DNA from: Sphagnum compactum
Taxonomy: Eukaryota
NCBI GenBank assembly: GCA_965153455.1
Contig: OZ234493.1
Span: 19,272,213 to 19,336,212, forward strand
Length of the DNA: 64,000 nucleotides
Direction of reading: 5' to 3'
Shown here: one piece after another, positions 4,307 through 54,639 of the stretch
How the letters are laid out: each line of letters begins with the position of its first letter
Position numbering within the stretch: the stretch's first letter is position 1
Made by a program: the position numbers and the translations under genes
Notes under the pieces: generated by a model
What the model was told of the DNA's origin: nothing
The model's input: only the letters and a program-made list of their open reading frames with translations
The model's database searches: none

Positions 4307-10015
<5,709 letters not shown>

Positions 10016-10117
10016 CGTTGTGCAAATCCTTTTTCTCTTCCGGCTCGGTTGTGAAATTCTCCTCCTGCAATTCTGTTTCTGAAAACTCTCCAACAACTTG
10101 GCATATGGGTGGCACTT

Positions 10118-10320
10118 AAACCCTAAACCTAAAACCAGTGTGACCGACCAAATACGGAGCCTTGTTTTTTTCAGCTCCAAAATACGAAGAATACAGGCGT
10201 ACTCAAAATGGGCAGCGTTCAAAAAAATGCTCCGTGTGGAGTACGAATGTAAAGTTTCATATCGATTGAAAATTAACTTGGGCTCCACGCTTGCTGCTCA
10301 CTAGTGTAGACCGGCCCATC
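10118..10320. promoter_or_regulatory. XPB proximal promoter with telo-box and site II-like element
   Basis: AAACCCTAA at about 10118 and GGCCCA at about 10312, just upstream of the XPB start. This pairing is known from plant housekeeping promoters. Confidence 0.45.
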
Positions 10321-10402: not shown

Positions 10403-11490
10403 CTAGTTTGAACCCCGCGCCTAATGCACAGGTGTGTTATTTCAACAATGTTTCGTTCATGTTTTAGTTTTTTTTTTTAACTTTTATCTTTTTTATTTTT
10501 TATTTTTATGTGTTTTCTGTTTTTATTATTATTTTGTATAATGGGCACACAAAGCGCAAAGGAAAAGGATTAGTGAAAAAAATAACAAGAAGAAAAATTA
10601 AGCTTTTCACCTTACAAAATGCTTTTTCTTTTTCTTTTTTCTTCTTTTTCGATCTCTCCTACTTATAACTTCATAACTTTTTTATTCATTTTAAACAATT
10701 TAAAGTGCAATAGGAGCGTCACCTGAACGCTTTTACAAATCAATCTTTGAACTTTAATAGCAATAAAGCAACGTACAAGGAATTTTTTGGGTGTTTGAGA
10801 ACTGACCTTTGTAATGTTCACTGGTTTGTTTTTTTTTTGAGTTTTTGACCCACTCTACTTTGGGGGTGCAGAACTTTCTCAATTTTTAATCCGTTTTCAA
10901 AAATTGTTAGTGTGTCAAATGCATCGAGAGGAGGGGTTCAAGTTTTGTTTGGACACCAAAGACGATGGAGCCCTACCCTTGGATTTGGCTTACTTTGAAT
11001 GTTTAAATGGAACAATGAATTAATGAAAAAGATGAGTTGATTTTGCAAAGATGAAGGTTTCATTTCAATAATTTAAATATTAATTGAATTTGCAGAATGT
11101 AACTTGAATTGAATGCAAATTAATTAAATTTGAATTGAATTCAAAGATATTGTGAAATTATTGTTCAATTCAAAATTTTAAATTGAAATGAATTGAATTG
11201 AACATAATGATATTTCCCTTTGGATTCAACATGGGTACTATTTTTATTGACATTTGAATTGAATTGAATTAAATTGGATTCAATTGAATATATTTTGGAT
11301 GAATTTAATTTAGTTTTAATAAAAATTAAATTAAATCCAAATTAGTTTCAGTTAATTTTTTTTCATAATTTTGTTGAGTTGAATTCAACCAAATTATGAA
11401 ATTTTAATTATGAGAAAACACATGTTAATTTGTTTTTTATATTCATGGGAGTGGGTTGACAACGGAGTGACATAATTAAGTAGTTATAGA
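10403..11490 (-). mobile_element. Non-autonomous Helitron
   Basis: The minus strand ends in a GC-rich hairpin (cctgtgc-attag-gcgcggg) followed by gttcaaaCTAG and then T. Candidate 5' end TCTATAACTACTTAA at 11490, although it is preceded by T rather than the canonical A. Confidence 0.6.
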
Positions 11491-14400
11491 ATGTTTTCAT
11501 AATTGTCAAGTGGATGGGGTTCAAAATTGTCATGGTGCCAATCATTAATGAACCTTATACATGTTTCATAGGTTTAACAAAAGCTGCAAGGTTTAGCAAA
11601 AAGCCCTTCAATATCTCTATAAGCAATTAATTGTTAAGTATTTATTTGTTCCCTTATATTAGGAAAAAAATTGTTCACAAAATTTTTTCATCATCTTTCT
11701 ATTTGTCTCTTGACCCTTCCTTCTCCAAGATACAAATCCAACACAATAAATATGGCTATGTATAAATAAATGCATAATCTTGCAAAATGTGATATATTTT
11801 TTTCTTTGTTTTTTGGTTGATAAATCCATTCCATTGAACTGTTCTTTGAGATGACTCATATATAATTTGAACCCCATTTAACAATCCTCCCAAAGTTGAT
11901 AACCTTTTTAAATTGATAAAAATCATGTACATTGATGTTGTTCTTATTATCTTAAATGATTTTTTTTTATATCTAATTTTTTTTCAATAAATATTTGTTT
12001 AGGGAAGTCTACTTATGTATTTTATTTTTGGTTTCCAATTTGTAGTGAAAATTATTGAAAGATGATTAAATATTTGAACTTTATATTTGGTTCAAATTTG
12101 GTTAAATTTTCCAACTGCCAATTGCCATTTTTTCTACATAGAAGCTATGGATGATAACCATTTTGGCTTCATAAAAAGTTTTTAAAAAACCATTGAACAT
12201 TGTGATTCTGTTTAATGTTGTGTTCGGCATGGTTTGTTGGTACAATACTAATGTTTTGTAGATTTGTGATGCACTTTGCAACTACACTACCAAAAAATAA
12301 TAATAATATTTTTTACAAAAAAAATTATTATTATTATACATTTATATCCTTTCAACCTTATTTCCTAGCCATTAAGCATAAAAAAGTTTATTTAATATAT
12401 TATCATTTATCAAAGGGATTTTGGTTTCATGATATCCTTTAATACTTGAGATTACTTTTGTCCATTAATCATTTCATTTGATGGGGGTCAAACTATACTC
12501 ATAAAAAATTTAGATTGTTATAGATATCCTTAAATTCACAAGTCGCATAAATGAAAATTTTGGTTTGGTGTTCTTAACCACCAATTTAACACCTTTCCGA
12601 AAATTGATTATTCTAGTATCTTAATGGATTAGGCAATAAATTTTTTTTAGTTTTCAGTTTTAAAAAAAAATTATTTTGAATGTCAAATTTTCAAATTTTA
12701 GTAATTGTGGCAAGTCCAAGTTGCACCATCAAATTGGGCATGTCATACAATGCAAATTCAAGAAATGAAACACTACCCATTTGGTGAGGTATTTTGATCT
12801 TGAACATCATTGTTTTCTAATTCCTTCAAGGAAATGGTTGATTGTCATCTTTATTATCTCCATTTAACCACTAGTTTGAATTTTTTTTGTGAAAACTCCA
12901 TTTAAGGATAACTTTGTTTCTTTTCTATTGTTGCAAAACAGATAACCAAATTGTGAAAAAGAGGTTATATTATTGAGAAGGTGGAGATCATAGACAAATT
13001 TGTTATTTGATAAAATCATGGGTTCCATTTCAATGCATATTGGACCTTTTTAGCAAACAAGAATTCATGTAAAGGCACATGTGGACAAAAACTAAAAAAT
13101 GTAGCAAATGAATGATGTGCATCAAAATGGATGAAAAATGAGATTACTTCATTCATGTTGAAAACATAAATAAATTTATAACGTGGGCTGAAATCATTGA
13201 AAAAGATATGTAATGTGTCAAATTGCATTTTAAACAATTAATTAATTATTCAGCACAAAAGAGCCAAATTTGTTCAAGTACTAAGGTATTCAAAAGACAA
13301 CATTATACACCCTCTTTTTCCTCAAGTCCTTTCTACCCACTCTTTCCATTCAGAAGTAATTATCATTTGTTGCACAACAAATTTCAATATCAAGAGCCTT
13401 TCCAACATAACAAAATCACTCTAAATAAATTAGATTGCAACTTAATTTACAACTATTTTTTAGTTGCAAATGATGCATGCAACTAAAATCTTTGTAATTA
13501 CATAAGTCAAGTTACATGCACACAACAATTGCAAAGAATGTTAAACTAAACAATTGATTTAGTGCAATGTAAATGAACTATGCCTAAATGTCACCTAGTG
13601 ACATAACCACTTCGTATGCCAACATGGCCTAGTAAATAGTGTTCCAAGCAATTATTTTGGTGTGCCTCTTGGTTGCACCATGTGTAGCCCCATTGTCAAG
13701 TTTGTTTAGACACATGTAAGTTCATTAACAATTGAAGATAATGAAAGAATAAAAACCTTGTGAATCTCAACTAACAAATTTGGTGATATAGATGCATCCA
13801 TATGGTGTGTAATGATCAAAGAGAATATTTGTGGATCATGTGGCTTATGATCTACCACATGTAAATATATAATAATTGCATTAATAATTTTAATAAAATT
13901 TCCATATATAGTTTTAAGACATTTAAATTACATTTACATGTATAATTATGGTTTAAGGTTGAAGCTCTAAATTTATGTTTTATTATATAATTAGGGTTTT
14001 GACATTAGGATATTAGGATTGGGTTTTGGTATTAGGTTGGTATTAAGATTGGTAATAGGGTTGTGATAAGGGTTTTACCTTGTTTCATGCACACAAATCC
14101 AAAAAAATCAGGTAGCAATTTTGGTTCAAGAATTGTCAACAAAATGCACAATTGCATCTACTACTTTGCTTGCCTTCATTATATCTTTAAATACACTAAC
14201 ACATCTCATATTATAATCTACCATGCATAAGGACACCATAGTTTATGACACATCAAACACAAGCATATTCCTTAATTTCCCTTTGAGGGGTCAAAATTAC
14301 ACATACTAGATGGTCCTTTGCAATCCTTAGACATGTTGTTGGCTAACATTTCAATTATATCATTGTAAAAAAAATTGAAGATACAAATTACTCATCAACA

Positions 14401-15360
14401 TATACATGGTGGTTCAAATTTAGATCTCACCATCCTTTAAGACAACACCTTGCTATCATCACCTATCATGGGATTTCATAAACATTGAACTTTTCTTTCA
14501 CATAAATCGGCCTTTCCAAACAAAAATATTATGCCAATTACATCTTTCATCTTGAGTTGTGATGGGTCATGATTTTAATTGGGCACTTGCAAGTGAATAT
14601 TACCTTGGCCTTCCATGATTTCACATAATCAGAGTAGCTATGTATTAGAATGGACAAAAAAAGGCAAATGAAAACTTCACAATTTCACAAGATGTTTCAA
14701 TAACAATCAATACAACAAATCATTAATGCCACTAATGGAAAGGAAAAATGAACTATGCCAACATTTCCATTTTGTAGTTTATTCAAGGAGAAATAACAAG
14801 ATCACATAAAAACCCATAGGTTTGTGAGAACCCTAAATTCTCAATTCAAAACATGGGGCACATTAGCTTAGCAAACGTGGCATGTGACATTAAACACTTT
14901 TATGAAATCATTTCCTCCTTAAATTGATGGTCACCAAACCTTCCAATTGCTTAGAGAATCAACCTTCATTAAATGAAATCAATTAAGTTTCCATAAAGCA
15001 CCTATAAAAGGATTTCATAGATTTTGATCATTTGTAATCTATAACACCAAAAAAAGGTTACTAGGGGTAGAAGTTGTAAATAATAATAAAATGGTTTATG
15101 GGTAGAATGATGGGTATGTATAAGAAATAAATAATGCAACCTATGGGCCTTATCTTGAAAATCCTTGACTTAGGACATAGGCTTAAATTCATGAATAATT
15201 GAATCAACTATTTTTGGTTAAACATGATTAAAAATGAATTAACTTCATGTAATTAAATCTTTAAAAACATATTTCAAATAATTTAATGACTCACACACAC
15301 ACACACACACACACAATTTTAAATAGAATTTTGTTGATGTGGCAACTTGTGTTAATTCAA

Positions 15361-16907
15361 TAAGTACCCTAGGTTGATATGGGGGGGTATTAACTAACAT
15401 TGCAAATGGGGAGGGACAATTATATGAGTGGATTGTAACCTAGAAAGGGTTTGGACCTACCATGAAGGTTAATCTTGAATTAAGTTCTTATTGCTTAGAC
15501 CTACCAATTGATGGGTGGCTACTAATGGGGCCTCCCTTTTTTTCTTTGTGGGGGTAGGGGGAGGGTAAGATTTTTTTTTGGGGAGGGAAAGGAAAAAAAT
15601 ATTGCACAACATGCAAATTGATTATCCATTGTCCACATGGAGAATGGATAATCATTCTCTAGATGCATAGATAAGGGGAGGGATGAAAAGACTAAAAGGT
15701 GGAGGTTGTAACTTTGTTTCAGGTTGTTTGTTTTGTACAAGATGGGACATTTAAAAGATGTTGCAAAAGAAGCAGGGCTTCCCGAATGAAAGATTTAAAA
15801 AAATTGTTGGAAGTTTGTGACTATTGTTGTGGGATGGTTTGATGTAAATCCTAGTTTATTGTCTAAGATGGAAATGTTCATAAAAAAAGAATGTGTAGTT
15901 GGGCTTTGTGCATTAGAAAGGGGTGGCACTCTTTCACATCTTCATATGCAAGTGGTTGTTAAGCTTCATATTTCAAGTTTAAAATGTTGAACAAGGTTCT
16001 CAAAGAGGGGTTGGGGTGGGATGATCCAAAGAAAGCACCAAATGGGCATGTTGTGCATTGCAAGTAGTTATGAGACACGCCTTCATACATTTGTTGGTAT
16101 GGTTGGCTATTATATGAAAGATATTGATGAAGATCATTTTCAATTTGTGCATCATAATGTTAGTGGGGAAATGATGGAGGTTGGCATGTTAAAGTTTGTC
16201 AAATATGGAATCACAATAGTGAAAAATTGAATGTGTCTCACACATCAAAATGTTTTGGATTGCACAACAAATGTTTCATAAGCATGAGATAAAAAAATGA
16301 TGAATTAATATCTTGCAGGGGTTTTACGCCACATGATTCAAACTTGTCAATTTTATCCCGTAGTTGGTTGGGTGGTTCCGTTTCATAACACTGGAATGGA
16401 TCATTAACGATCGGAGTCTTTATGGAAATGCATGATTGCACCACATTTGATGGATCTTCATGACATAACTCAAATTTTTTTTTAACATTCCTCACTTGGG
16501 TCAAAAAATTGGGAAGCTAAAAGGGAGAGTTGTATAATTATCTCTGTAAAGAAAATGTCAAAATAAATTACAGTTGTTCACCATTAGAAGTGCCTAGTGA
16601 TTATGATGGACTGTAGCAAGATTTCCATTTAGATTTTGTGCCTTTGTATTCAAATAATGCCCATGTTTTTAAAGCATTGTTGCAATATGTGTAGTGTTAC
16701 TATGAATAAAACTTTTGTTTCATATCATTCACATTTTAAAAGAATTGTCCTTTTTTGTGACATTTTTTACAAGTTTTTTTCCCTTTTGGACCAATCAATG
16801 AATTTATTACATTTGAAGTTGACACTTCAACCCCCATGACCCCCATTAATGTAATACAAAGATCAATTAATACCCAAAAGGTGGGGTGTTCTTTGCAAGG
16901 GGTATTA
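15361..16907 (+). mobile_element. Replitron-like HUH endonuclease transposon relic, copy 1
   Basis: Decayed ORF at about 15814-16290: FVTIVVGWFDVNPSLL...GLCALERGGTLSHLHMQVVVK (HUH at 15937-15945), then after frameshifts LNKVLKEGLGWD and LHTFVGMVGYYMKD (YxxK at 16108-16119), EDHFQFVHHNVS. Contains internal stops and frameshifts; ends are approximate. Confidence 0.8.
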
Positions 16908-18103
16908 GCCCAAGCAAAAAATGGTGACGAACTTTATTGGGAAGAGAAATTTCATGCAATCAATGGGAAGGTCCAAACATGCATTCAAGGTGCCTTGTTC
17001 TTTTTTATTTTGAGTTTGGTTAATGGGGAAGGGGGCAGGGGGGGGGGGGGTGGTGGGGAGGGGAGGTTTCCTTTTTCAAGCTATATTTGGTGTGGAGAAT
17101 GGATTATCCATTGTTCACTATCCACTTCAACAATGGACTTTCCATGCAAGTTTTAGGGGAGAGGGAGGGGTGTGTCAAAGGGTTTCAACTTAGGCATGAC
17201 AAGGAAGATGAAGGTTCAATATGTACATTGTTATTTAAGAAGTGCCATTAACTCAAGTTGCAATTGGTTAGGGGAGGATCAATTTATCTTGTTTCCATGG
17301 GAAAAATATCTTAGATGAAGGTTTTGGCTAACAAAGCTCCAAAGTTCAAGTCTACACAAGATTTTTTGAAATATTTTGAAGTGTGTCACTACTGGCATTG
17401 TAGGTTTTGATTTTGATCCTTCATGTTTGATGTTCATTGAAGTAGGGTGAAAGTTTGTTTCACTTGCATTTTCAAATGGTTTGTAAGCTCAAGACTGCTA
17501 GCCTAAATTGTCATTGCACAAGGCGTTGAAAGTTACATTACATGGGATTAAGAAATGTGCATGCTTCTTTTTGAAACTATTGAATTGCAAAATTTTGTTA
17601 ATATATTTTCTGATTCTACCTTTGTTTCATTTACATATCAATATTGGTTTTGAATGAAGTGGCTGAAACAATGCCCCAAATTTTTATTTTTATTTTTGTT
17701 AATGTAAGAAATACCATAGAAGACGCTATAAAGGATTTTCATCATGAGTAAGAAGCAGTTCTTGCTAATGCAAAGGATATGTGGGACGAGGTTTTGGAGA
17801 GTGAAGATGATGATGTTTGTGTTGAAATTCCAAATTTCATCTAGCTTTTGGATGGTCCTCTCCACAAAAATATTTTAGTTTTTAATCATGGCTTGCCATG
17901 TATATATGTTTTTGTAATAAGGTTTTTGCTTTCTTTTTATTTTAAGAAAGCCTGTGAAGTTTTCAATTTTACTAATGGTGAGCCAATCGGAATGGTCTAT
18001 TTGAAAAAAAAAGAATCTAAACTTGGGAGACAATTTATCTAATGAATAGAAGAGCTGAATAGGACATGTTATTTTGAATAAGTAGGGTGTTCTTAGGGTG
18101 TTA
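16868..18103 (+). mobile_element. Replitron-like HUH element relic, copy 2 (diverged, internally deleted)
   Basis: About 17340-17550 translates across frameshifts to KYFEV..TTGIVGFDFDPSCL...LFHLHFQMVCKLKTASL..LHKALKVTL (HLHFQ at 17461-17475), collinear with copy 1. It has the same upstream G-tract and hairpin. No YxxK motif was found. Confidence 0.65.
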
Positions 18104-18872
18104 TTGCATTTGCTTCATAACATCTAATTTAACATATAAATGAATGGATGGGCCTATAACTTAATGTTACACAACTATGAAAATTATTGTACCCCTACTT
18201 CCTCCCCTTTCCCCCACCCTTTGCATGCACAAGCATTCACCATGAAACAAATTGATGATGAATCAATATGAGGCATTCAAGTTTTATGAGGTGTGTTCAA
18301 TTGAACATTCCTCAGTTACAAATCAAACAAGAAATTACAAAAATCACAAATTTTCACTCTTCATTTTTCCAAGCTTGTTGCAACTTGTAGCATGGACATA
18401 TTTAAAACTAAATGTTTAAATCCTCTTGAAAGAAAAATTTCAATTTAAGAATTCTACAAAGGAACAAAAACGTGTGCAATATTGCACGTTTGTGAGTCCA
18501 CTCCCTAGAGAGCTTGCCATTATTTTGCTCAGAATTTCCCTTGACATATAGTCAAAGACATGTGGCAAAGTCAATGTAAAACTTGAGCGAGAAGGAGACC
18601 CTATTGGTCAATAATCTAAAAGATGATGAAAATGAACATGGAGAAAACAGAGTGATGATCAATCAACAAAGCTCATAGGAACAAATAGAAGAAAAAATTT
18701 GAATAGCACAAAGATGTTGACAAAACAAAAATGAACATTGCAAAAATGCATTGATGGCAAAACTACATAGCACACAAAAACAAATAGAAGGGCAAAAAAA
18801 AAGGAACAACACAACTTGATGCAAATTGCAAAGAAATGATGGAATGATGTCTTCAAAAAGTTTCAACACCAC

Positions 18873-19286
18873 TGTGCAAAGGTTGCTAGGTTGACAGATC
18901 GAGGTTGTGCAAAAAGTTATGGTGTGATGACAGACAAAAAATGATCCCATTATCTTTGTGCATAGATATGAACTTTGAATAAACAATAGCTTTCATTAGT
19001 ATAGATCTGAGGAGGACCAATCAAGAGATTAAATACAAGGGAACAATCCCAGATGGATAGCAAGTTTCGGTGGTCACCGGGACATATCTCAAGATTCACT
19101 ATTCTAACTATTGGTGATTCACTGGTATTACTATAATAATTAACTGTTATCCACCATCACTACTACATTGATCAATTGCCTAACTTATGTAACTATGAAT
19201 TCTAACAATCTACTTAAATATGTTAACTATTAAATCTAAGTTCCTGCCTATCTCCCACTTATGGAGACAGGTGTGAAAATACAACA
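18873..19286 (-). mobile_element. Putative LTR followed by a degenerate PBS
   Basis: The minus strand starts TGTTG and ends TGCACA, followed directly by gTGGTGTTGAAAC (PBS-like). No second LTR or TSD was found. Confidence 0.35.
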
Positions 19287-19699
19287 CATGATTAAACATA
19301 TGATTAACCATTATTATGATTAAGCATGATTAAAAATTACAAGAGCACCTTTGCATCATGTAACATCTCTTTGTATGTGAATAAGCGCCAAAAATAATCA
19401 TAATCCAGTCACAAAATAACTCATGGGGTTTGACATCTTGTCCATTAGGAACACAGAAATGCAGCTTATTTACAACCATGCCAGAGGTTCCAAACATACA
19501 AGACATATACACTCCCCTTCAAAATCATGTGATTGTGTTCCACTCTCTGAGGTGTGTATTTGCTTCCCGAGATGTGCACTGGTTTCCTAGTAAGGTCCAT
19601 TTGATGGAAGACTTTGCAGGGACCTGTAATTGATCCATAAGGATTTACAGATAAATAGTGGCATAATAAACACTGCATTTTATTATGCCACTATTAATG

Positions 19700-22600
19700 A
19701 ATTTGGACTCCATTTGTAGTTTTTGGTATGCATCAGAGAGGTGCAAACACAGTGCGGATGGTGCTTCAATGCTCATTCTCTTGGCACATTACAGTGACCA
19801 ATCTCCTGATATCTGTTTCTACTGACAATGCTTTTTAGGACATCAGAGTCAACTTAAAACCTGGACTATAGGTCATAAACTATTTCTTGTTCCACGGTCT
19901 TGTGATTGGATGTGAGAACCATATATCTGTACTTCAATTGACAAGAGATTGAGCCAAAAAAGTTTGATGGGCATTCTTGTTTAATGCAGAAAAACATTAT
20001 GTGCATTCTGCAAAGAGATTTAAGTGAGAAGCTCTTCCTCAGCAGGAAAACCTAAGAATTTTCTTGTCTCTTTTGATTCCAGTTCATGTGATCAATGTGA
20101 CTTCATGTTTTCTGCTTTTATAGGTCCATTGTCACAGATTAAGCTGAAATTTCCCCATGTCACATCCATTGAGACAGAAGAATTTTTAATTCATCAGGAT
20201 TCTATCCCCATCTTCCCACTCTTTCTGCCAGGCATACTCCCGGGCATATTGCAGAAGTACTCATTATCCTCCATTTAGATGATCACTCCAGAGTATCTGC
20301 CTCTGAGAAATTCACCTAACGTCTTTTTGAGATTGTAATTTTCTATGTTCTTCACAGACTTCTTCATGTTTGCTATGTGGGATGCTACCTTCAGGTGTCA
20401 CTATCTCAGCTAGTAAAAGGGGATGGCCAGAGTCCACGAGGTCCCATTCTCAGCGTTGTAGGCAAGGTGAGTTGTCCACTACCAAAGTGCCAAAATTCAG
20501 GGATTGACCATTTCTCCTCTATGGGGAGTGACATTCTCATTGTATGAAGACTATGGGTAATTGTGCACTGCATGAAGACAGAACTTGAAACCTGTGCCCA
20601 AAGAGAGGATAGTTTGCATGGAGCTTGATATAAGCTAAGAATTGACATTGTTAACATTTGTTGGAATGCATACTTCTTTTCAGGCAAATCTGACTCATTT
20701 AGGTCCCATGGTTGTTAGACATGCAACTCCAGTGATGTCAGTGATGTCAAATTGGCTGATCTGATTGTGTTGCATCCCTTTACAATAGAGTGATTCCAGG
20801 TGCTTGTAATTGTTCCACAGCTCATGCATTCTGCTCCTTCCAGTACCTCTAGGCTAGATAGGTCTCATAGTCTGGGTCTCACTGATTCTCCAATTACCAT
20901 GTGCACATTGCTTGTGATTGTTCTAACTATTTTAGACCTGCACTTTGAATATATGCAGTGGACACTCCATACTGACCTCTGAATGTTTTTTGTGGATTAG
21001 AATGCAGATATTTGTCTTTCAAGTAAGCTATGAAGCTAGCAGGTCTGGAACCCAGCAATTCCTGAAGACAGTTAAATTCCCTTTTCATTGCAAAATCTCA
21101 AATCCCATACCAAGAGGCAAAGCCTGAACATGAATATGCGCCTGACATGCTCAGTCAAGTCATTTTAATTGATGTGAGTGGTTAGGGAGTAAGTTGGGAT
21201 TGGCTCTTAAGGTTTGCCAAGTTTTGTGAGGGACTCTGCTCCAAAAAGATCAAGTCAATCCTGACCATTGCACATGGGGACTGTTTCTTGTAGATGGCAT
21301 TACCTAGTGGGTCAGGGCATTCATGACAGCAATGTTGATTGACATGGCTGGCTCCTTCACTCTAGCACTACGCTGGCAACATATTATCTTGTTAAACAAC
21401 TGTGTGTTTATCTTGAGGTTTGTAAACAATCCACTTTCAACCAGCACTTGGATTCAGGATGAAGGGGTTGATCCACCTACAGAGCCATACGAACAGCCAG
21501 AGTTTAGAAGAACTGTCTAATGTATTTAAGGTATGCCCACTTGTATGCAATACATTGTCTTTCCCTGCTATTTTTTTCATCGAAATGTTTGCAGAGCTTG
21601 AACATTAGTAAGAGTTTTCTTGACAGTAATGTTAGTCATATCCCAGTCCCCCGCAGGTAAGAGGATACCTGAGTCTGGATTTTGGTCTTTGGTTGTAGCC
21701 ACCTGAAGTAACTAGCCATGCCATTCCATGAAACAATACCTGAGAGGCTAGCAAAGTTGGCAAGGAGAAGCAGCCTGCATGTTTGTGGAAATCAAATTCC
21801 TAGACACCAAAGTACACACTCTCATTACACATGACCCTGGTTGAATCCTTTGCACTTTCATTAGGAGCTTTGCTGGACAAGAGCTGTCAGCTGTTCCTCA
21901 CCAAGTGGCTCTAATGACCATCTATACTACAGGCTCATATCAGAGTAATGACAGTACAACAATATGGTATCGCAGATTCAATTTGAGAGGCATGTTGACA
22001 CCAACTCCAGGCAACTGCCTCATGAATCCCATGATCAGATTGAAGACTTGATTCTTGATTCTTTGTGCCCGGCATTCCATCATGAGAGATCACATGCAAT
22101 GTTAGTCCTTCACTGCTCAAAAGTGACACAGACTTAACACAAATCTTTGCAGTAAGGACCCAGATTGGAAACTTCTATAGATTTAGGATTCTAATTGAGA
22201 TTATCACAACCATCCAAGCAATACAACATTCGGGAGGTAACAAGCATGCATGTAGAGAGCCGCAGGAAGACAAAGAGCATGTCCACTCCATGTACATAGT
22301 GCTAAAACCGAAATCAATCTTCATGGGCAACATTGTCCAGAATATATGCAGCCAACATGCTCATCAACTGTTCAAGAAACATGCAAGACTCACCAAACAT
22401 TCTCAGCTTCTTTCTGCTGTCACTTTCCTGATTGCAACACACAATCCCCTTACTGCAATCCATTGTCCACAACATTTTGTTCAAGGAAAAGAATTACACA
22501 AAGATGATATCAGCAGGAAATTCAAATCCCTCTTCAAATACTATCCAATTTTGTTCAATTGAAGCAAACAAAAAAACCCACAAAGCATAAAGTTCTGATC

Positions 22601-23471: not shown

Positions 23472-24002
23472 CTAAAATTGCAACTTCTTCTTATGATGCC
23501 TCTCCTTCTTCAAGCGGCCTTGGCTCTTCCCTCTCTTCTTCTTGATGCCTCCCTGCGCCTGCAACAACCTTCCTGTGACCGCACTTCCACCAGCAATGCC
23601 GTCATTATTCATAGCACTTTCACTCTGTCCAACTCTGCCTCGAGTTTGCTCCTCCACCTCTGTCCCCACCATTTTAACATGCTCACTCAGTCACGAAACC
23701 CTAAACACAGACACTGTGTCTCTGACCCACACAGGCATGCCGGCACCTGCTTCATTGTACTGCCATATATTCACCTGTATTTAGAACTTAAAACAAACCT
23801 GTTTTGTAAAAGAGAGAAGAAGGTACTTACCCATAGACTCAGAGTCGCTGCGTCTCTTCGGGAGCTCGATCTTGGGCGCTTGGGCAGCGGCCTCTTGCGC
23901 CGCCAGCTTGGCCAGCTCCTTGGCATCATAGTGAGGAGCCACCAACTCCCGCTTCAAAGTGCGCAGTCTCTTCAACCTCTTGGACCTGATCGACTTCCCC
24001 AT
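23472..24002 (-). CDS. LLP-homolog / learning-associated protein (Laps)-like small basic protein, 2 exons
   Basis: Exons 23831-24002 and 23472-23659 (GT-AG, phase 1). N-terminus MGKSIRSKRLKRLRTLKRE resembles the LLP family MAKSLRSKxKR; the C-terminus is K/R-rich. Confidence 0.8.
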
Positions 24003-24596
24003 CGCTGCAAACACAAATTTGCGGAAACTGCCACAAGCGCGTGTTGTTGCAATTGGTGACAACTCGTAGCAATTGTGTTGTTGGTATTCTCAACCTCCCA
24101 TCATCATCATCATCATCACCCAGAAGAGAGTTTTGACCTAAAAAAAACTCTGAAATTTCCAGCAGTCACAATTTTTGCAGGGTTCACATCTACAGTAGTT
24201 AAAAATCAAAATACAAAATCTATGACCCAAAAAAAATAAAATGTAATCCATTTTGTAAAACCCTAGATCCCAAGAATGGTGTAGCAATCTCTTTAGAACT
24301 GAAATGGCTTACAAATCAAATAATACCATTTGGCAAATCTCCCTAATACCCCACCCCTCCCCACCCATATCTACACTTCACACATGATTTTGTGCTGTTC
24401 TATATTTATGGACTTCAGTTTTAGATACTAATTTATAATGAATTCTCCACCTAAGTTCGTACAATTCACCCACGAGTTTGTTTTGTTTGATATTTATGGG
24501 CATTGCTTTTAGATACAAATGTTTGATGAATTAGGTTTTAGATTTCTAATTAAAAACTGAAGCCCCCTCAAAAAAAAAAAAGGTTTATGAAACACT

Positions 24597-24704: not shown

Positions 24705-27620
24705 AATTCTGTGTGGAATTCCAAGAAATGTGTGAGAAAGTATTGATATATGATCTAACTATTTCATTAGATCATCCTGAAACACAATTATAAGTTAGTT
24801 GAATGGATGATATAATCAGAGAATTGTGTAAGTATGATCTTCAAAAAGGTCGTACTAAAGATTGGACCCACAATTATCATGCTTATTATAAGATATAGGT
24901 TTAGTTGGTAGGTTTCTTTCACATCATTTTCATCATATTTAACAATTATTCAGCATTGGGATATTTTTCAATATGCCACAATCCAAGGAGATGGATATCT
25001 GCCTCAAGTTCGAACCTAGAAAATTTGTGTACTCCCAACAAACAACACCGACTATTTTGGATGTGACTATATGGCTTGTGATTTTGCATGTGTGGAAGAT
25101 TTTTTTTTTTGGAATGTTATTATTGGAAGGTTGAGATGATCAAACATGAAAAGATCACATGTGTAATTGTGCATCATGTCATCTTTCTCATGTAGATGGT
25201 TAGATTAACCTTTCTTTAAATTTATTCTCATCAACCTTTGTTGTATGTTGTGTGGGTAGTTTACAGGACTGCGATTATGTTGTAAATACGTGATCAGTGT
25301 TCAAGGGGTTGACGTATGAAATGCTTTACACCACTTTCAAACAATAGACCAATTAACAAATGGTTTTGCCCTTAATGTGTTTAATAGATTGAGATTCCTA
25401 AGGTGACTAAGTAAGATTAGTTTAAATAATTTTTTCATGATGATTCACATTTGATTGAAGATTTGAAAAATTATAGTTAGGTGATTAACGATGGGGTTCC
25501 CATATTACACTTAGCCTACTAGTCCCTTCTACTTTGGAACGCTAAATCCAAATGTTAATTAATAATGAATTTTTATAATGCATTTCTTATAATGTTATTT
25601 AAGTTAAAAAGACCTTAGCCTTAGATGGGGGGTAGTTTGTATATGGTTAACCATTTAGGATTTTTATTGTTATGCGTTGTATGTGTGATAAGAATGATAG
25701 TTATAAACATTGATGTGGTAACACATGACAATTGTCAAGTGGTTATGATTAGCCATATAATTAAATTTAAATTAATTTTTCATAACCTTGCTTAATGTTT
25801 AATTTAGTTATGAACTAATTCTAGTGTAAACAAGTTCAAGCTAATCTCCAAATTGAGTAAAAAACCTAAGTTTCGTGATATTAAATTCCTCTTTGGCGAC
25901 TTGAGATTTTAAAATAAAATGTGTTCATGCTTTGTAAGTTATTTTAGTGTTCACATAACTTTTCACGGTACATGTGTTTGTGTTATTTTTATGTTTTGGG
26001 CTTGGATTCTTGCATTATTTTAGATGAGTTTTTTCTAATCATTAAAGGTGACCATTTTAAAAAATTGTTGTTTTGTATTTTATGTGTGATAGCAACAATA
26101 GTTGTAAACGTTGATGTGGTAGCGCATGATAAAAACAACATGAGATAATTTTTTTCCTCACAATGCACCTTATTGCAAATTGATTTATATGTCATTACTT
26201 AACCCATGTTGTTGTGCCTTTGGACATTTAAACATCAAACCAAAAGCATATGTGATTCACAACCATGGCCACCTTACAAATGGACAAGGCTTAAAATTTC
26301 AATTAAGTTACAATAGTTGCTTACCTACTATTATATAAACAACTTGGTTAATAATTCATCAACTTATAATAAGTCACTCAAAACCAGGTGGATATTTTAA
26401 ATTCAAGCTTGTTAAAGAAGTCAAGCAATTGTGAATTCAACAATAAGAAAAGGACCACCTTTCTTGTTAAATAGGTAAGGGAAGTTGTGATATGAGAAAT
26501 ATTTTGAACATTCAATGAGTTCTCCCTCTTTGACAAAGCACTCTTCAAAATCATATTGCCTTGGTGGAAGACCACCATATGAGGCAACTAATTTCTATCA
26601 TGCATTTGAATTGTTGAGTTTTAATCTAAGCAAACCCCTTGGAGTCCAAGCTGCTCACCTTTTGTTGATGCCTTGATGAAAATGTCTTTTTTCTTGAAAA
26701 ACCTTGCTCCTCAAGCATAAATAACATTATGAGAAAAGAGGAAGGATGTTAAACCTACTTTTTAAGCATGGGAGGGGAATTGTGCCTATTTGTAGGTTTA
26801 GGTGCAAGTTTCTTATCATTTTTTAAGGAATGGACTAAGGGACCACTAAAAGGGTGCTGCTTATCCCAAATAGTCAAGTGGATTTAGGTCAAATCTATTT
26901 ATTGTAACCCATGACCTAGAGCTGTTGAACATCCTAATTATGCATAGGGTAAGGAACCCATTAAGGGTCTTCCAAAATTTGAGGGCCTGGCCAAGGGTGA
27001 TAATGAACCTAATTTTTCAATAAGTGTAAGGTATACATAACTTACACTTTTGTAAGATTACTAAATTTGAAAATATTCATTATGTTGGGGGAAGGTACCC
27101 CATTAAGGCTCTTCCTGGATTCTTTGGGCCTAGCCTCAAGCTATCATACCTTTAACATCAAGTTGTATGATGGGTAAAAAGGTCATAGAGGGGCAAGGGT
27201 TCTTACATCTACTCCTTAAGAGTGGGAGGGATCTTACACCTATAACTAGTAGGCATAATTTCTCTCACACCCTTGAGGAGTAGGGGGCCGAACTCGGCTA
27301 TTGCCTTGTCCTAGGCCCCTTATTTTGAGAATGCCCCCACCCTAGGGCTTTACCCTACACTGAAACCTGCCCGAGACGGAAATCCGCGAGAATTCTGCCC
27401 GGGAGAAAATTACGCGGCGAGTCTAGACTTCCCGGTGAGCGTTGTGAAGAGGGAACGCATTTCGTTCTAGGTTTTGCAATCGAAGGGAAAGCTCACAAAT
27501 CTCTTCTCGCCGATTGGATTTGTTGCTGCCGTGAGAACAGGCCAGAAATTTGCATAGAGGTGATTTGCTGTGCAATCACTCGTTGTGGATCAGAAGGAGG
27601 AGGAAAAAAGGCGGTCGGCA

Positions 27621-29160
27621 ATGTCGGGAGCAGCAGCCGGAGCTGCAGCTCCTTACTGGAGAAATGCGGGAATGACGTACATCTCGTATGCTAACACTTG
27701 TGCAGCCATGGTGAGGAACTGCCTCAAGGAGCCTCATAAGACCAAGGCTCTGAACCGGGAGCAAGTTTACTACAAGCTTCAGACCTATCAGGAGGGGGAG
27801 CCTCAGAAACCTGGTACAGGATCTCCCTCTCTTTCTCGCCCTAGATCGGTAGGGTTTCTCGTTCCTGCTGTGTTGGTAGTCTGGAAGGTGGATTAGGTCA
27901 CTGGTCGTGTTGCTTACACTTTTCTTGTTTTGAGATTTGGCTCACTCCCTGTTCCTTTTGTGCATTCTCAAAGATTGATTGTCACTAGTAACGCTCTCTA
28001 TCCATAGCTGGGTGTAGTGGATTGCGGAACCTTTGTATGCGGAACAGATTTTGTGAATGCTCTAGAGCATGGCTTATAGCACTGGTGATGCTTGCAGCTT
28101 TGTATCCATGGCTAGATGTTGTTTTCATGGCATTTTCAGTACATGGATTTCTGGGTGCATGACTTTCCTACCTGTTAGGGGCCACAACGAAGAATGGAGG
28201 TTACTCCCATGAGTGATCATTAAACCTTTCTGTGTAGGCATGTCTAGATTTCAGGTTGCTGCATTCATGTGTGGGGTTTGGTGTTTGCGGGCTTCAGGCA
28301 ATATGCTTCTATTGTAGTTTTAGTCCCTAATGCACATCAGGTCCTTAAATAAGTGATGAGTCCATCGCAATGTCTAATCTTCACTGTAAGAAGTAGTGCT
28401 AGACAATCCAGAGCAGATCATTAGGATCAAAGGCACGTTGTTGTGTAAACACATATTGGCACATCTTTAATCTTCACAAGCTTGTGAGTCCAGGGCAATG
28501 CCCTGGATTCCTCCTTGTACTTTTAGGGTGATTTGAGGACACAACCTGTTGTATGCCAGCTTTCCTGCCCTAGTGACCACTCAGCAAGTATATTTCTCAT
28601 TTTTCCTTGTACATTAGTTTGCTAGCTAATGTGTCCGCAATGTATTGTGATTGCAGTGGTACGGGAGACTCCCCCTGCCCCACCAGCAAAGAAGGAGTAA
28701 TTACTGATGTTTCTAGAGATGTTGGAGCAAGAGAATCAGCCCTGGGATAGACACCACAAGGCTTGAAAAGAATCTGGTACATTCTTGTGGTGTTTGAGTA
28801 CTTTAAACCGTTTGTTTGAACCTGCCATGCCTGGACAAGGTGTGATCCAGGATCTCTCTTAGGTGTTTGCCTCCTTTGTCAATAAACAGTTTACAGTACC
28901 TTGTTCCATCTCGAACTCAAAGAGTCTTTTATTGATTCTATCCTGGTCATTACCATTTCATTAATGAGAGTGATAGCAAGAGAGCAGTTTCTCAATAAAT
29001 GTTGGTGACAAAAGCAGGCAAAGTCTTAGAGCAGTGCGATGCCATGTTTCTAAATGCTGTGTTTGCTTGAATATGGCATAGTCTTCCTATTCATTGCTTC
29101 TAGTCTTCAATCTGGTTCAATCTATTGAGGTTGGCAGTCGTGTCATCTTTACAGGAGTAA
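27621..29160 (+). CDS. Mitochondrial F1-ATP synthase subunit epsilon
   Basis: Exon 1 (27621-27813) encodes [38 protein letters not shown]...EGEPQKP, containing the WRxAGMTYIxY..VRNCLKEP signature. Candidate exon 2 (29138-29160) is phase-compatible and encodes VVSSLQE*; it is less certain. Confidence 0.9.
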
Positions 29161-32128: not shown

Positions 32129-33162
32129 ATCCCAGTGCCATTGAGTTGCTACACATTTAGAGTCCACTATTTTTTATGATACTCCTTGTGATTGCAGATC
32201 CTAATCTTTTGCCAGTTGCATGACAAAATTCTTGAGAGATTTTGAACCTTTGATAGGAACAGTAGTGGGCCTTGTGATTGTTACTATCAAGGAGACTACT
32301 GACAAAATTTTGTAGCCCAAAGAGATGATATCAAGACAGCTTCAAATTTAACACTTACAAGTATGGAGGAGCTTTTGAAGGTGGCTTTGAACTACTGAGA
32401 GACAGTCAATTGTGCTTCTTGACCTGAAGATAAATAGACTAGGACCAAGGTCCTCATATCTTCTGAAGATGATCTCAAACAATGAATAGAGTTCCACATA
32501 CCATGAGGAGCACATATAATTACTTTGCAGTTTAAATGTGCACAATCCTTGACAAACCATGGAGTGTGGTGCACTGGATGGTTAAAAGATCAGTAGTCAA
32601 ATTACCTAGCAACTGATACTTGTTGAAAGATGCAATTGCAGCACAATGTGCACAGTTGCATGGATGGAGCTGTGAGGTACAAATCGAGAAACATGCACAT
32701 AATCTGTCACACTATACAACTTCACTTGTCATGTAACCTGTCAGACTAAACAACTTCAATTGCCCATACTGATGCATTTAAAACCATGAAAAGACTTTCA
32801 TTGACATTTTTGGGACCACTGTAATCCTGAAACATTTTTTTCCTCTGCAGCTCCTAAAGAGCCTTGATTCAATCCACTCTCAAATACCTTGAGAATACCT
32901 TGTTGTCTACCTGACCTAAAATAATCGGGGATTTGAAGTTTTGGACATTCTTGCAGAACACAAACATCTTCACAATTGCCCTGATCCCCACCTACATCTT
33001 GTATTTAGAACATGAACTAATTGGCAGGCCAAACAGTAGGGATTCAAAAGGCCCAACAATATAACTACAATCCTAGAACATGGAGAAGAATGGACATTCA
33101 TCCCATCCACTCACAGTGCTTCAAGGGATTTCAAGAGAAGTGGCATGTCATGGAGAAGAGAC

Positions 33163-35289
<2,127 letters not shown>

Positions 35290-40669: not shown

Positions 40670-43600
40670 CTATTTGTGGGTTTCGAGACAGAATGCATCA
40701 ACATGTAAACCTCCAATACTATATGGGTCAACCATTACAGAAATTCCAGTGCTACCTTCACCCATGTATACACAACCCTTCACCACTGAAACTCCTCCTG
40801 CTAGGCTACTATTTGCCTTGTATTGCCAAAGTATTTTCCCTGATATAGCTTCTAATGCCATAAGTGTACCATATGGTGTTCCATATGCGATGACAAACAC
40901 AACTCCATTGGCAACAGTCACAGGTCCATATGCAATGCTATTGTTTGGTGTAGCAATGGACCATAAAATGGTGCCATTATGTGCATCCATAGCTACCCAT
41001 CCACCTCCATTTGTAACTTCACTGGATGGAAGAAGTGTAAAATTCAGCTTGTCGTAGTTAACAATGTTTGTATAAACCCGTTGGCCATCAGTTGCTAAAC
41101 CCCAACATGCTCCTGCAGGCCCTGCAACCTGTTCAAATTATAGAAAGATACAGATCAAATCCCCTAGTTCATGGAAAATTCAAACCAAAAGCTCCATATA
41201 AGAAGAGAAACAAATTGATGCATAAAGAAAACAAAAGGCTTTTGCTGTTTGAAACAAGTTCCATGTCAAGAGTTTCACTGACCTTTCATTTGATGAACAT
41301 GCATTAATATTACGTAGGTTGCATGATAAACACTATTGAAAATTATTTTGTCATGATGAATGATTTAAGAACATTCAACTTGTAATATATATTTTAATAT
41401 AACGAATAATGGACTTTACCATTGCCCACACAATGTGTCCATCATTGCGATCAAGGGCCCATACAAATCCATTCTTTTGTCCAACAATTGCCACATCTTG
41501 CTTTGAATGCGGATGCACACTGTGGTCCAAAATGCTATGTAGTAATGGGGCTTCACCAAAGTCTGCATCAGGCCCTGGGATTGGTGGACAATTTGGATTT
41601 TGAGGTTGGAAACAATTTACATTCCAAGTATCATAGCCCCCCAAATGATGACTCCATATTATTGTGCCATTCTCCAAGTCTAGTGCAAGGACAGATTCCG
41701 AGTGATCACTTGGTTTAATGCATGGGTCAGGGACAATAGGATGTTTCTCTTTTAGTTGATTTTGTTCACATTGTGTTATGTTAGGAGGTGTGGTGTAGAG
41801 GTTTCCAGTGGCAAAAATAACAAGGTTTCTGTGTATGTCAATAGGCGGGCTACTACCCCATATTGCCGCCCCTGAGTATAAATGTTTATCACCATGATTA
41901 TCAGGTATCATAAGGGTCCTCCATTTGATATCACCTGTAATGAGATCAAGTTTCAAAAAACTTCCTTGAAAATAACAACAATCCACAGAATTGATGCCCA
42001 AGCCCTCCTCTTCAGATGATGTACCTACAAAATACCAACTACAATAAGGTGGAAATTAGCATCACACAACATTAAACCCTTAAATGCCTAGAGCCACCCT
42101 ATGTTATTTGCGAAATTTTCTTTATTTATTGACCTTATATCATAAATGATGAAGTGAAAATCAGAAGGTGAAATGTTTTTCATGCACACAATTTTATAAA
42201 ATAGAGTTATCCATAATGTAAGAAAAACACAACACCAGAACCCTGAGTTTGGTCATACACAGGGTGAGATTCAAAAAACACCTGCAAAATAGTACATTAG
42301 GATTCAACCGGGGTTGAAACTCAGAAAACCATCAACTTTGGTAGTAAACTGAGTTTCATCCTGTTTTTCCTTTTTCCTGAGCGCCTCCACTGCTGCTAGA
42401 TATATTTTTCTTTGCACCTCAGTATACTGTTTACAATTTTACGTCAGTTTGGGACCAGAGAGTCCATTGGACTACTATAATCCATTCTTTGCTCCACAGT
42501 ATACAACTACTATAATTTATCTCGGATCTTGTGCATTAAATGCTAAGTTTCAACATTTCATATTGAGATTTAATAATATGTCTTTACTTTGCGGATACCA
42601 CTGAAAGAGGGGATAGAGGGTGAAAGGGTTTCCAAAGACAGGGTGAAGACAGGGTGAAGACAGGGTTACTTTCCAGATAACTCTCATGTACAAAACATTA
42701 CAAATAAAATTTTGATAGGAAAAGTTTAATTACCTTTTGTAAGCTGTGCCAGACATTGTGAGCACAGCAAGTGGATTTGGGTCCAATAAAGTGGACCAAA
42801 CAATGTCACCTGTATTTCGATCCATAGCAAGCATTAAGGCAGGACCATATATGGCAACTAGTAGTAAATCCTTGGTAACAACAGGTGTTGTTCTTCAAAA
42901 TATTGTTATTGGACTCTTTGTGAGCTCTGTCAAATTCTTTTGCCATATAACATTTCCTTTTGTTGCACAAACTGCATATAAATAACCATTAGAAGATGGA
43001 AAGTATACTACCCCATCCAATGATACAGATGGTGTAGCTGTGACATCGTGCTTGGTCAAAAATTGCCACTTTCTCTTAAGTTTGGCAACTGTTTTGGGGC
43101 TTATTTCCTTTTCATAATAAGCTTCACGTCGGTTTAGAATGCCCCCACCATGATTTGGCCACTAAAACAATGCCACAAGTAAATATTGTGAGATATCACA
43201 AGTAAAGTATCTCATTGTTTAATGAATATGTTCCTTTCCTTTTCTCTATTTGGTGACAAGTTTGTGAAATATCATGTTTCCTAAAACATAGTCCACTTTC
43301 CATGGGTTATTAAATGGGCTTGGAAGCAAGTCTTCTTAATCAAAAAAGGAAAATACCCAAATTTTTGAAAAGGAGGGTTCAATGATGAAAGTCTTAAAAA
43401 TGTAGCATCATCACTTGCACATGCAAAAATTAATGTTGTGATAGAATGCAACCATCACTCTGATGATTAGAAACTCTTCGATCTAGCCATGTTATAAAGT
43501 GGATATCATGTTCATGGTCCAAGATTTCTTGTCACAAATTTCCAATTAGGTTAGGGGAATATGGTGGAATGTGAGAGCTGTGATCCCCTTAATTCTTGTA

Positions 43601-50318: not shown

Positions 50319-51558
50319 TTAACATACAAATGATATGGTAATAGCTAGGGCATCTGAAAGCAACCAATATCCTTGTCTATGGTTCAGCACACATTGTTGA
50401 ACCATGGGGCCCAAAGTATTAGCAACAACAAAGGCTATTACCCAAACTTGGGGATTAGGCACACAACCTTGTAAAGCCAATGATTGTTGATTTCCATAAC
50501 AAAGATCAATCACATGCTTAAACTCAATAGTTTCTTGGAATATGACAACTTTTGAAGCAAAACAAGTCTTCACAATAGTTTTTAATTTCTTTGGAAGCAC
50601 CCTTGCTAGCTCACATGCTTTGTGCCATTCTTGCCATCCCTTGACACTTTTCTTAGTCCAAGTAATGGTTTTTGGTAAAATTATTTATGCTTCTTTAATT
50701 GAAAATTGAAGGCATGCCAACACATACTTTAGAGTCATCTATCGCATATTGATAGCATTTAAACATTGCATGACCCCAATAAGAACCTACAAAAAATGTT
50801 GATAATCCCAAAACCTCACAAGACACAACAAATGTTAATGCAGAAGTCATGGTGGCAAGATTGTTCCTTTCATCTTTGACATATGCAAGAACATGAATAT
50901 TCAACCCATGTCTTGCAAACAAATTGTTCACTTGTATTGCCATGGCATTTTCAAATGTGTTAATAGTTTCAAAAAGTATAATGATTACATGACAAGGCTC
51001 CCACTTGTCATTCAAGAAATGAACAATAAGAATAAATGTATCAATACCTTCCCTTGACATCCAAAGATCAAAAGATATAGTGCATGTACTACATGATTGA
51101 AAGGTTAGATAAACAAATCTTTCTTTTGTTCGCTCCGTAATCATAAGCAAAAGTTCATTTTTAAACTTTTCCTTTGATGGGAAATTCAATTGAGGATTTT
51201 GCCTTTGAATTAATCTTCTGAAAAAATGAACCTCAACAAATGACAAAAGCACAATTTTTTTGTGTAATGAACAACACAAAATCTTCTTCAAATTTTTTTT
51301 TATGAAGATCAATTTTATTATAAAAAACCAAATTACCAAAAAAAACAAAAATAGTGTTAAGAGTTGGGTTGCACTTTTTTTTTGCTGGATTTTTTTTCCC
51401 TTCAATCCCATCCTCTTGTTGCTCAATCCATTCATTCCAAAGCTCCCAATGATTGCGCTCCAAATGTTTCTGCAATGCAAAAATTCCATTTGTCGATCTA
51501 TCAAACCTTTTTTTTGTTTAACATTTGGAACAAGTGGATAACACACAACACATTTCAA
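50319..51558 (-). mobile_element. hAT-family transposase relic with BED zinc finger
   Basis: KCVVC...MQKHLERNH (BED-like), TISFDLWMSREGIDTFILIVHFLNDKW (first catalytic Asp region), YVKDE, CxGH-like YWGHAMFKC, KLKTIVKTCFAS. Several frameshifts. Confidence 0.85.
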
Positions 51559-51839
51559 ATGTTCAACTTGTGAAGTTGCATTTGAATTTGAATTTGAACT
51601 TACTTCTAGTGAAGAAAATTTTAATGACTCATAAAATGCCCAAGCTATGGTTGTTCAACTTTTAGGTTTCTAAAAATCTCAATTTTTTGCCAACAAAACC
51701 CATAATTTTGAACAACTTGTGCTTGCAAAATTATGAACATGTGATGTTGATGTTGAAGGCAAATTAAGATCAAAAGCACAAAATTATATTCCTAATTGAA
51801 CCTTTATGATTTCCCCATTAGGATCCATGATCCTATCAC

Positions 51840-52405
51840 ATGAACAAGAATAGAAACCAGGAGAACACGACCATAAACACCAACAAAACCCATGAGAGCA
51901 ACGACCAATAACACCAACAAAGCCCAAGAAAGCACAACCATGAACACCAAAAGCCTAAGAAAGCATGACCATGAATGCCAACAAAGCCCAGGAAAATAAC
52001 AATCACAAACACCAAAAGCCAAGAAGAACAATAATCGTGAACACCAACAAAACCCAAGAGAACAACAACCATGAACATCAACAAAACCTTAAATAACATG
52101 ATCAAGAACACCAGCAGAACATTAAGAGAGCACAACCATGAACACCAAACAAAACCAAGGAGAGCACGACTAAGAACACCAACAAAACCCAAGAGAACAC
52201 AACCATGAACACCAAAAGCCCAAGAAAATAACAACTAGGAACACCAACAAAACACAAGAAAGCAATGACCAAGAACACCAAACAAAGTTGAAGAAAACGA
52301 CAACCAGAAACATCAATAGAACCCAAGAAAACACAACCACAAACACCAAGAGCCTAGGAGAGCAACGACTAAGAACACCAATAGAGCCCATGAGAGCACA
52401 ACCAT
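51840..52405. repeat. Degenerate minisatellite, unit of about 30-33 bp
   Basis: Consensus approximately aagagaacacaaccatgaacaccaacaaaaccc, repeated head to tail upstream of the hAT transposase. Confidence 0.9.
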
Positions 52406-54639
52406 GAGTAATGGCAGGGACAATGTTAAATCTACAACTCACCTTTGAATTTTTTTCCTTTGAGCTTCCTTCCAAGGTTCCTCTTAAGCTCCCAAGCTTA
52501 AATGTTTGACCTTTCATGAAAACACAACCCAAAAAATACCCTCTCAAGTTTCTTGTTTCTGTCCTAAGTTTTGTTGAATGGCTTTTCTTCAACACAACAC
52601 AAATTTCCATGAGCTTCAACCTTCAAAATCATTTCAAGCTTAACCTTTTTGAGCTCAACCCTTAAATTATTTTCAACTTCTATTCCTTGAGCTTGAGCAC
52701 TTCAAAAAAAAAAACATTGTTTGAGCTTGTTCACTAAAGAAAAATAAAATGAACAAGAAGGAAGTGATTCATGAAATAGGCGAAAGGGCAACCATACTAG
52801 TCAAAAGTCAAAACTAGTGGATGCCCAAACCCTAACCTTAAATAAAAACCAAAACATGATTTTGAAAAAAAATCAGTCCAATTATTCTTCCCCATTTGAA
52901 TCCAACCCTTGGGTCAAGTTCTTTTTCTACATACAAGTCGAAGTAACCCCCTTGGTTCCCTCCTAGTCCCATACCCAACCCTACTCCTTGTCGACTCTAG
53001 TTTTATCAATTCTAAAACTTGAATCCGGTTTTGGGTAAGTTCTTTAGAACCAAAACTAGAACCACCAATTCCTACCGCCCCAAGCAGGACCCGTCCAACA
53101 CTAGTATGGACACACACACCTTGCTTGAAACAACAAGTAGCAATATGAAACAATTTTTTTGAAAAGTGGTCACAATGAAGTTTGGTGAAAGAAGAAGAGG
53201 GAAAATGTTTTACATCTCACCATCCACATATAAGACCATGTCAACATCTTACATGTTACACCAAACCATTTTACATTGGATAACCCCAATGGCATGTCAT
53301 GCCATACTATATGAGTAGCAAATATGTTATCATCACATCCAATGTCATACATGTACATGTACATGTACAACCCTTCTTAATCCATTTCCTCAAATCCCCA
53401 TACTAGGTGGATTTGATGGGTGCTTAACTTTTGCTTGCATCATTTTCACCCTTAGGTTGGGTATGAATGTCACAATTTTGATCTTCTTACATTAATCACA
53501 ATGTCCTTTCACAATTGTTCCAATCTTGAATATAACCATGGAATTTCCTCACATTCTTTCCCATTCTTCTATGATATGAATCACTTTGTCAATTTTGATT
53601 ATTTCCAACCAATTCTCCTCCACATGTTCCTTGTTTCTTGGAGTTGTTCCATTTTTTTGGCAAGATTCATAATCAACATTCTAAACATCATGAATGATGA
53701 AAATTGTACAATTGAAATTTGGATTGTGCTTTCAACTACTAGATATAAAACATTTTCTTTAACACAACCAATAAATGAGCATTTCTTGCAATAGTTTTAG
53801 CAAAAAGGTCAAGTTCAAACCTTTAATAGCTCCTCTAGATCCTTAGATTACTCTTTTGGTAGCTAGTCCTTTTCCATGTTTTCCTAAATTTGATTCTTTA
53901 TTTGTTTTTTCATAAACCACTTTTTGAAACTTTTTTTCAACCTTTTCTTCTTTTCATATGCCTTACCTTTATTTTTTTTCAACTAAAATAACTTACACAT
54001 TCACTATCCATCACATGTCACAACATGCTTGCCATTATTTTTTTGAATTTGTTTTCTCAAAAATATAACATAACCAAAGTTTTTTTCTCAATGGTAAAGT
54101 TTTGTGAAATTTTCCAAATTTTAATCAATTAATTTATTTTGGCTTGGGCATGCGTTGGAATTGCATTGGGTGGAATTGGGAGACATTTGGGTTTTTTTTG
54201 GAGGTGGGAAATAGGAGTCAATTGGTGGTTGTTTTGGGGGCAAGATTGGGATGGATATGGGAGATTTAACTTGTTATATTATTCGGGCACATTTGAGGAG
54301 TTTTAGGTGAAGGAAAAACATGCAGATTTAGATCTCCTCCAAAAAAATTAAAGGGGAAGAAGGCCGTTTTTGAAGGCAGTGTAATCATTAATTGAAATCC
54401 TAAACATGAAACCCAATAGCAAAAAACAAACTGGCGTTGATCGTTTAGAAATGTTGGGAATATATTAGATGTTGGAAATAGGTTAGTTTATAACTAGGGT
54501 CCATTAGAGTTTTAAAATAGGCTATGTTTGAAATAGGTTTGATATTTTTAATTTTCGAACCTTTGTAGAAGCAATTTTTTTGGAATAAAAGTTTTTTTTT
54601 TTTTGCCTCATATGACTTTTTCCAAGTTTTTGGGTTGTT

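Follow-up and report, generated by a model that had tools for sequence, protein, structure and literature searches.

Introduction

Replitrons are Y1 HUH transposons that move by copy and paste and have a precise left end; those of Chlamydomonas combine a fuzzy right end with a non-autonomous partner (PMC10288648, PMC9977147). In PMC10288648, motif I of the group is defined as SUTU and motif II as HUQ, the published autonomous families mostly measure 2-4 kb, and circular intermediates and terminal sequences are named as open questions; the main text of that paper makes no mention of head-to-tail, nested or concatemer arrangements, nor of right ends continuing into left-end sequence. One subfamily has been published for Sphagnum, Replitron-1_sMag, a Sphagnum magellanicum consensus recorded as incomplete (Datasets S1, S4, S5, PMC10288648). 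Helitrons resemble the element described below in their HUH chemistry, in copy-and-paste mobility and in usually lacking a target duplication, but they are Y2 elements with a fused SF1B helicase, whereas the present element is Y1, with a HUQ motif, direct repeats and no helicase.

The window analysed here is a stretch of 64,000 nucleotides from Sphagnum compactum (GCA_965153455.1, contig OZ234493.1, positions 19,272,213 to 19,336,212, forward strand). It contains a locus that shares with Replitrons a Y1 Rep, HUQ, an upstream Glu, GYxxK and a second helical domain (PMC10288648; PF21859, PF21860), as well as the absence of a helicase, short direct terminal repeats and a non-seed plant host (Craig 2023, PMC10288648). 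The copy is very probably a dead autonomous Replitron of a non-seed plant, from a subfamily outside those with a published consensus. The subfamily is new, but the group is known, and this is a dead member in an already known host genus. The features of the locus are as follows.

15361..16875, + strand: whole decayed Replitron, subfamily A; ends placed from siblings (15360-17050, overlapping pieces, 72-85%)
15742..16482, + strand: Replitron transposase pseudogene (PF21859 and PF21860); candidate start ATG 15742, conserved part 15814-16482
15814..15825, + strand: position of motif I, F-V-T-I; S-U-T-U/I in relatives and several siblings
15916..15951, + strand: motif II, H-M-Q, and ahead of it a conserved Glu as putative third metal ligand; ERGGTLSHLHMQ, from the homologue alignment
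16105..16122, + strand: motif III, GYYMKD (single catalytic Tyr 16108, Lys 16117)
16321..16482, + strand: second (putative oligomerisation) domain, Replitron_C (PF21860)

Identification of the transposase relic

The region 15814-16482 is a decayed Replitron transposase. In the Pfam scan, the joined pieces matched PF21859 (Replitron_HUH) with 50.5 bits (E 3.4e-13, cut-off 28.5), and the two pieces scored singly gave 23 and 29.8 bits. The locus was also the top match in a PF21859 profile search of the genome (52.1 bits), and none of the 14 control genomes had a match. PF21860 (Replitron_C) scored 28 bits on a 111-residue piece (E 3e-6, cut-off 27) and 25.9 bits on a longer read, and followed the PF21859 Rep domain in the correct order. 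The initial annotation had proposed a decayed Replitron copy from the letters alone, and this is borne out by both Pfam domains in order, interspersed copies, terminal direct repeats and neutral decay; the profile search that it suggested for the peptide returned Replitron_HUH at 50-52 bits, with no better match to a Helitron RepHel or a host gene. Its extent of 15814..16290 was too short, as the gene reaches at least 16482 through the second Replitron domain and the element measures about 1.5 kb.

With a threshold of E<=0.01, all three + frames of 11000-15750 and of 16480-20500 were free of Pfam families, as were the three - frames across 11000-20500. As these nine frames around the gene gave no Pfam match, no helicase is present at the locus, in agreement with the earlier claim for the downstream side. 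A fragment of a Helitron RepHel that lost its helicase would have ready sources here, as the genome is rich in Helitrons (398 PF14214 candidates, 150 of them listed), which also possess a HUH Rep. The locus, however, has one Tyr, HUQ and no Helitron Pfam match, and its right end lies about 390 nt past the second domain, which is too short for a helicase. The probability of such a fragment is negligible, and the Replitron domain matches refute it.

Catalytic motifs and homologues

Both peptides singled out initially, ERGGTLSHLHMQ and GMVGYYMKD, were found, as was their spacing of about 55 codons (His to Tyr, 165 nt = 55 codons). The reading had been described as three joined frames; three pieces are indeed joined, but they occupy two frames only, since both motifs share one frame and the linker alone is shifted. 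The label HUH was incorrect, as the metal motif is H-M-Q (HUQ) and not H-L-H. The Glu codon lies at 15916 and H-M-Q at 15943-15951, and the corresponding E38, H47 and Q49 were almost invariant among 25 aligned homologues. H-x-Q was kept in all 13 homologues shown, and the first His in only seven of them; motif II was called HUQ because PMC10288648 defines it so and because of this conservation of H-x-Q. In motif III, the G, K and D were invariant (25 homologues), the Tyr was present in 11 of the 13 shown, and in the window copy no second Tyr occurred beyond the Lys of GYYMKD. Motif I, F-V-T-I, has Phe in place of Ser and adjoins a frameshift, and siblings such as L003 and L004 possess the Ser form.

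In total, 154 database proteins were retrieved, and the 24 longer ones chosen by length for the PF21859 scan all matched the family, including two named fern proteins. The longer homologues were found by a full HMMER search, and none of them through the word index. The AlphaFold model of one fern homologue, which is not the protein of the window, had the strand-helix order of a Rep domain (pLDDT 86). With this model, Foldseek returned no match at E<=0.001; the top of its list was taken by papillomavirus E1, pMV158 RepB and circovirus Rep (E 0.004-0.02). By these weak matches the homologue may resemble pMV158 RepB and circovirus Rep, in which a small helical domain comes after a Y1 Rep fold, but those are replication initiators of plasmids and viruses, and the circovirus Rep bears an SF3 helicase.

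An endogenous piece of a CRESS-DNA virus would account for the same catalytic centre, as HUQ and Y1 are common to circovirus Reps (PMC10288648) and a circovirus Rep is among the weak fold matches of the fern homologue. Against this origin, which is very improbable, SF3 helicase and capsid families were absent from the flanks in the Pfam scan, Replitron_C follows the Rep domain, and terminal repeats together with gene-less derivatives are typical of transposons.

Ends of the first element and its head-to-tail neighbour

Direct repeats of TAAGTACCC bound the element, and the window's own repeats are degenerate. The terminal features, and the second relic that adjoins them, are as follows.

15361..15395, + strand: left end, TAAGTACCC followed by a G-run and the conserved left-end core; same start in copies L002, L003, L006, L014 and L016
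15619..15654, + strand: subterminal hairpin in the DNA, some 90 nt ahead of the gene; putative Rep binding site
16840..16875, + strand: right end; the direct repeat is degenerate here (7/9 letters, 16867) and intact in siblings L003, L005 and L013
16876..18096, + strand: second Replitron relic, subfamily B (blastn to L029, L033 and L039, 74-80%, E to 1e-105)

At the DNA level there were 16 matches, the window copy included, scattered over about 14 further places. The joints listed from three DNA runs contained no empty site, and the exact ends and target of the element are therefore inferred rather than proven. About 87 nt at 15430-15516 of the window copy are represented in siblings by a shorter stretch.

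The hairpin at 15619-15654 had a z of -4.3, reached by none of 200 shuffles. Across five copies, 92% of cells were paired and three pairs had changed on both sides, a result equalled by 13-14 of 500 shuffles, which is suggestive only of a conserved paired structure. A left-end hairpin was rejected as a universal origin, as it belongs to one end type only and none was seen by eye at other starts. Folding of 16880-17000 was no better than that of shuffles.

The second relic starts directly after the right end of the first element, head to tail, with its own left start GGGTGTTCTTTG. It has lost about 380-390 bp of the gene near 17550, retains a motif II remnant at 17431-17548, and its right end was placed somewhere in 18060-18096.

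Decay and age

A frameshift-aware alignment of 15817-16482 to a profile of 13 homologues revealed four stops (16065, 16228, 16306, 16405) and four frameshifts (near 15982, 16071, 16261 and 16298), the latter called with a custom aligner that may over-call in diverged copies. Further indels relative to other copies were located near 15773 and 15813. Changes unique to the window copy were spread 12/10/6 by codon position, with 18 non-synonymous against five synonymous; as this spread and the non-synonymous excess fit an absence of selection, the window copy has decayed neutrally. It is inactive today.

None of the genomic copies that were read is functional, since the window copy and 24 of 24 other loci each possessed at least one break, 25 disabled copies altogether. 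The initial suggestion to look for intact copies led to homologous copies but to no intact one among 47 matches; more generally, no intact autonomous copy was present among sets of 10, 23 and 47 matches, which are lower bounds on copy number. At least 47 protein matches to the fern homologue were found genome-wide, and their longest stop-free match did not exceed 116 residues. As a separate observation, several Helitrons of this genome possess open frames of more than 1000 codons, whereas the Replitrons are dead.

Few copies in the genome are as well preserved as that of the window, which still possesses all catalytic residues, as might be expected of a domesticated host HUH gene whose apparent breaks were introns or assembly errors. 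This explanation is very unlikely in the face of eight breaks in 666 nt and the non-synonymous excess. A contig of a second organism matched 13052-15931 with nine differences, and the 5' lesions are consequently no assembly error. No depth of polyA reads was detected on the gene, a weak point in itself as it comes from one run, about 12% read, over a stretch with no expressed control gene. The sequence was found in no RNA dataset among the matches listed. CpG depletion was discarded as a sign of silencing, as the flanks were equally depleted.

K2P distances from the window copy to five siblings were 0.14-0.15. The second relic was present in contigs of three other organisms, and contigs of two organisms covered both it and its flank at about 92-94%. 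Because contigs of other organisms carry them, the insertions predate the splits from those organisms.

Replitron subfamilies in the genome

The phylogeny included 22 genomic copies and 13 homologues, with four short copies left out, among them the second relic of the window. The genomic copies formed four well-supported clades: A (eight rows, including the window copy; support 100/100), S (seven, sMag-like), C (four) and B (three). Amino-acid identity of the window copy was 56-72% to its A siblings, 38-49% to S and 29-43% to database homologues. By eye, each clade had its own first ~25 letters and its own repeat unit, followed by a common left-end core.

Several copies in the genome, including L026 and L035, matched Replitron-1_sMag by eye in both DNA and protein. 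The window copy likewise shares with Replitron-1_sMag (PMC10288648) the left-end core and, by eye, a similar right-end motif, but falls in another clade and has another terminal repeat. L026, which matches the consensus by eye, was used as its stand-in, and the window copy was 67% identical to it in DNA over 303 bp. Membership of the window copy in the Replitron-1_sMag family was thus rejected, given 67% DNA identity against a family threshold of ~80% and its separate clade.

Three subfamilies are added in this way to the one published for Sphagnum, along with candidate complete ends to set beside the incomplete published consensus. Neither these subfamilies, nor the small partner presented below, nor head-to-tail chains were described in the literature listed, although earlier annotation in Dfam, Repbase or a figure supplement is possible. 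As a gene, the window copy is of no importance, since the group was known from Sphagnum before and this member of it is dead.

A gene-less partner element

Elements of 430-570 bp with Replitron ends and no gene were found in at least 154 copies (L051-L065 and L105-L161 among them), a partner family that a search by transposase misses. They parallel Replitron-N1 (PMC10288648). The undecayed left 34-mer had 15 exact matches in the genome (control 0), of which 14 entered a non-coding body and seven ended with a TAAGTACCC-type repeat 434-569 nt further on. Exact matches numbered 154 for an internal 20-mer and 134 for a left-core 26-mer (controls 0). As only nine of 26 copies picked by their ends possessed the exact 20-mer, the family is estimated at about 450 copies, probably more. 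Its status as the dominant repeat of the genome was rejected, as 390 kb of evenly sampled sequence contained, apart from a few diverged copies, a single close one.

Three chimeras (L003, L016 and L166) fuse small-element sequence with subfamily A sequence. Considering these chimeras and the common repeat, clade A would be the likeliest mover of the small element; subfamily B and the published subfamilies may also have moved it, as the left-end core is common to them.

Left flanks had A as the last letter in all 25 copies and AA in 21 of them. A target-site duplication of at least seven bases was present in one of the 25, near the null (4/600). This single case, L055 (G000:C5:14669452), has a 12-bp flank duplication preceded by a few extra letters, and resembles the signature of Chlamydomonas Replitron-1.

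Right ends were sampled from the first 40 usable of the 154 internal 20-mer loci, 27 of which had a recognisable right end (two of these being duplicates of one insertion). In seven of the 17 right ends with the TAAGTACCC repeat type, the sequence continued with the next left-end letters (null 0.9%), and another Replitron start followed the right end in 8 of 27 (null 0.1%). A variant with another right repeat, of the CACACTAT type, accounted for four of 27 and matched the ends of the sMag-like subfamily. Flank transduction was rejected: unique right flanks were shared in two pairs only, and these had their left flanks in common as well and are duplications.

Proposed mechanism

The living element would have encoded a Y1 Rep transposase in which the Glu and H-x-Q hold a metal and the single Tyr cuts one DNA strand and joins it again, as expected from PMC10288648 and general knowledge of HUH chemistry. 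The second domain probably formed oligomers, by which a second Tyr would be supplied. As the element possesses no helicase, single-stranded DNA is proposed to have come from the host: a nick at the left repeat would be followed by host-driven strand displacement. Copy-and-paste transposition would start from a precise left end (TAAGTACCC, with an A-rich target before it) and stop imprecisely at or beyond the right repeat, usually with no target duplication. The AT-rich right ends of older copies would also offer such an A-rich target. The gene-less element of 430-570 bp, whose two ends are the same, was most likely moved by this transposase too. The window element is dead and, at about 1.5 kb, smaller than most published autonomous families (PMC10288648).

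The run-on right ends may stem from a circular intermediate, from tandem parents that were read through, or from a longer repeat that was clipped. We tentatively propose a peat-moss system with at least four subfamilies, each with its own repeats and all with a shared end core, and several hundred partners, in which run-on is the footprint of circular or concatemeric rolling-circle replication and insertions land preferentially at older right ends, giving rise to mixed chains; taken as a whole, this composite proposal is possible but rather doubtful. Chains and run-on would need neither a circle nor end targeting if copying read through the right end into the parent's neighbour, or if the repeat were a longer one that had been clipped, and if a few founder tandems had been copied often. 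This simpler account comes close to an even chance. It is known from Replitron-1 that the parent's flank can be copied along, which makes the right ends fuzzy (PMC10288648), and short spacers are common to several junctions; the followers, however, are of different end types, the junction spacers differ, and where unique right flanks were shared, in two pairs only, the left flanks were shared too, as in duplications. With left ends that are precise, right ends that vary and copies joined in chains, the hundreds of old insertions provide defined DNA substrates and a statistical handle on the questions of circles and termini.

Genomic surroundings

The Replitron pair is flanked by intron-bearing plant genes, and the window contains the following ordinary host genes.

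6060-10297, - strand: XPB-like helicase
23781-24089, - strand: YBL028C-like factor
27564-27896, + strand: ATP synthase epsilon
33111-33563, - strand: carbamoyltransferase
40670-42055, - strand: PQQ beta-propeller protein
55873-56908, - strand: adenylate kinase

Broken frames at 50319-51654 (- strand) look by eye like a relic of a hAT-type transposase; Pfam gave no confirmation of this label. Tandem arrays were found at 51839-52407 (~17 copies of a 34-bp unit) and 34406-35007 (four copies of a 151-bp unit). Upstream of the pair, contig depth was raised at 12000-13600 in three DNA runs, which suggests another repeat family. Downstream, polyA reads partly matched 19476-19552 at less than 95%, pointing to a related sequence transcribed elsewhere.
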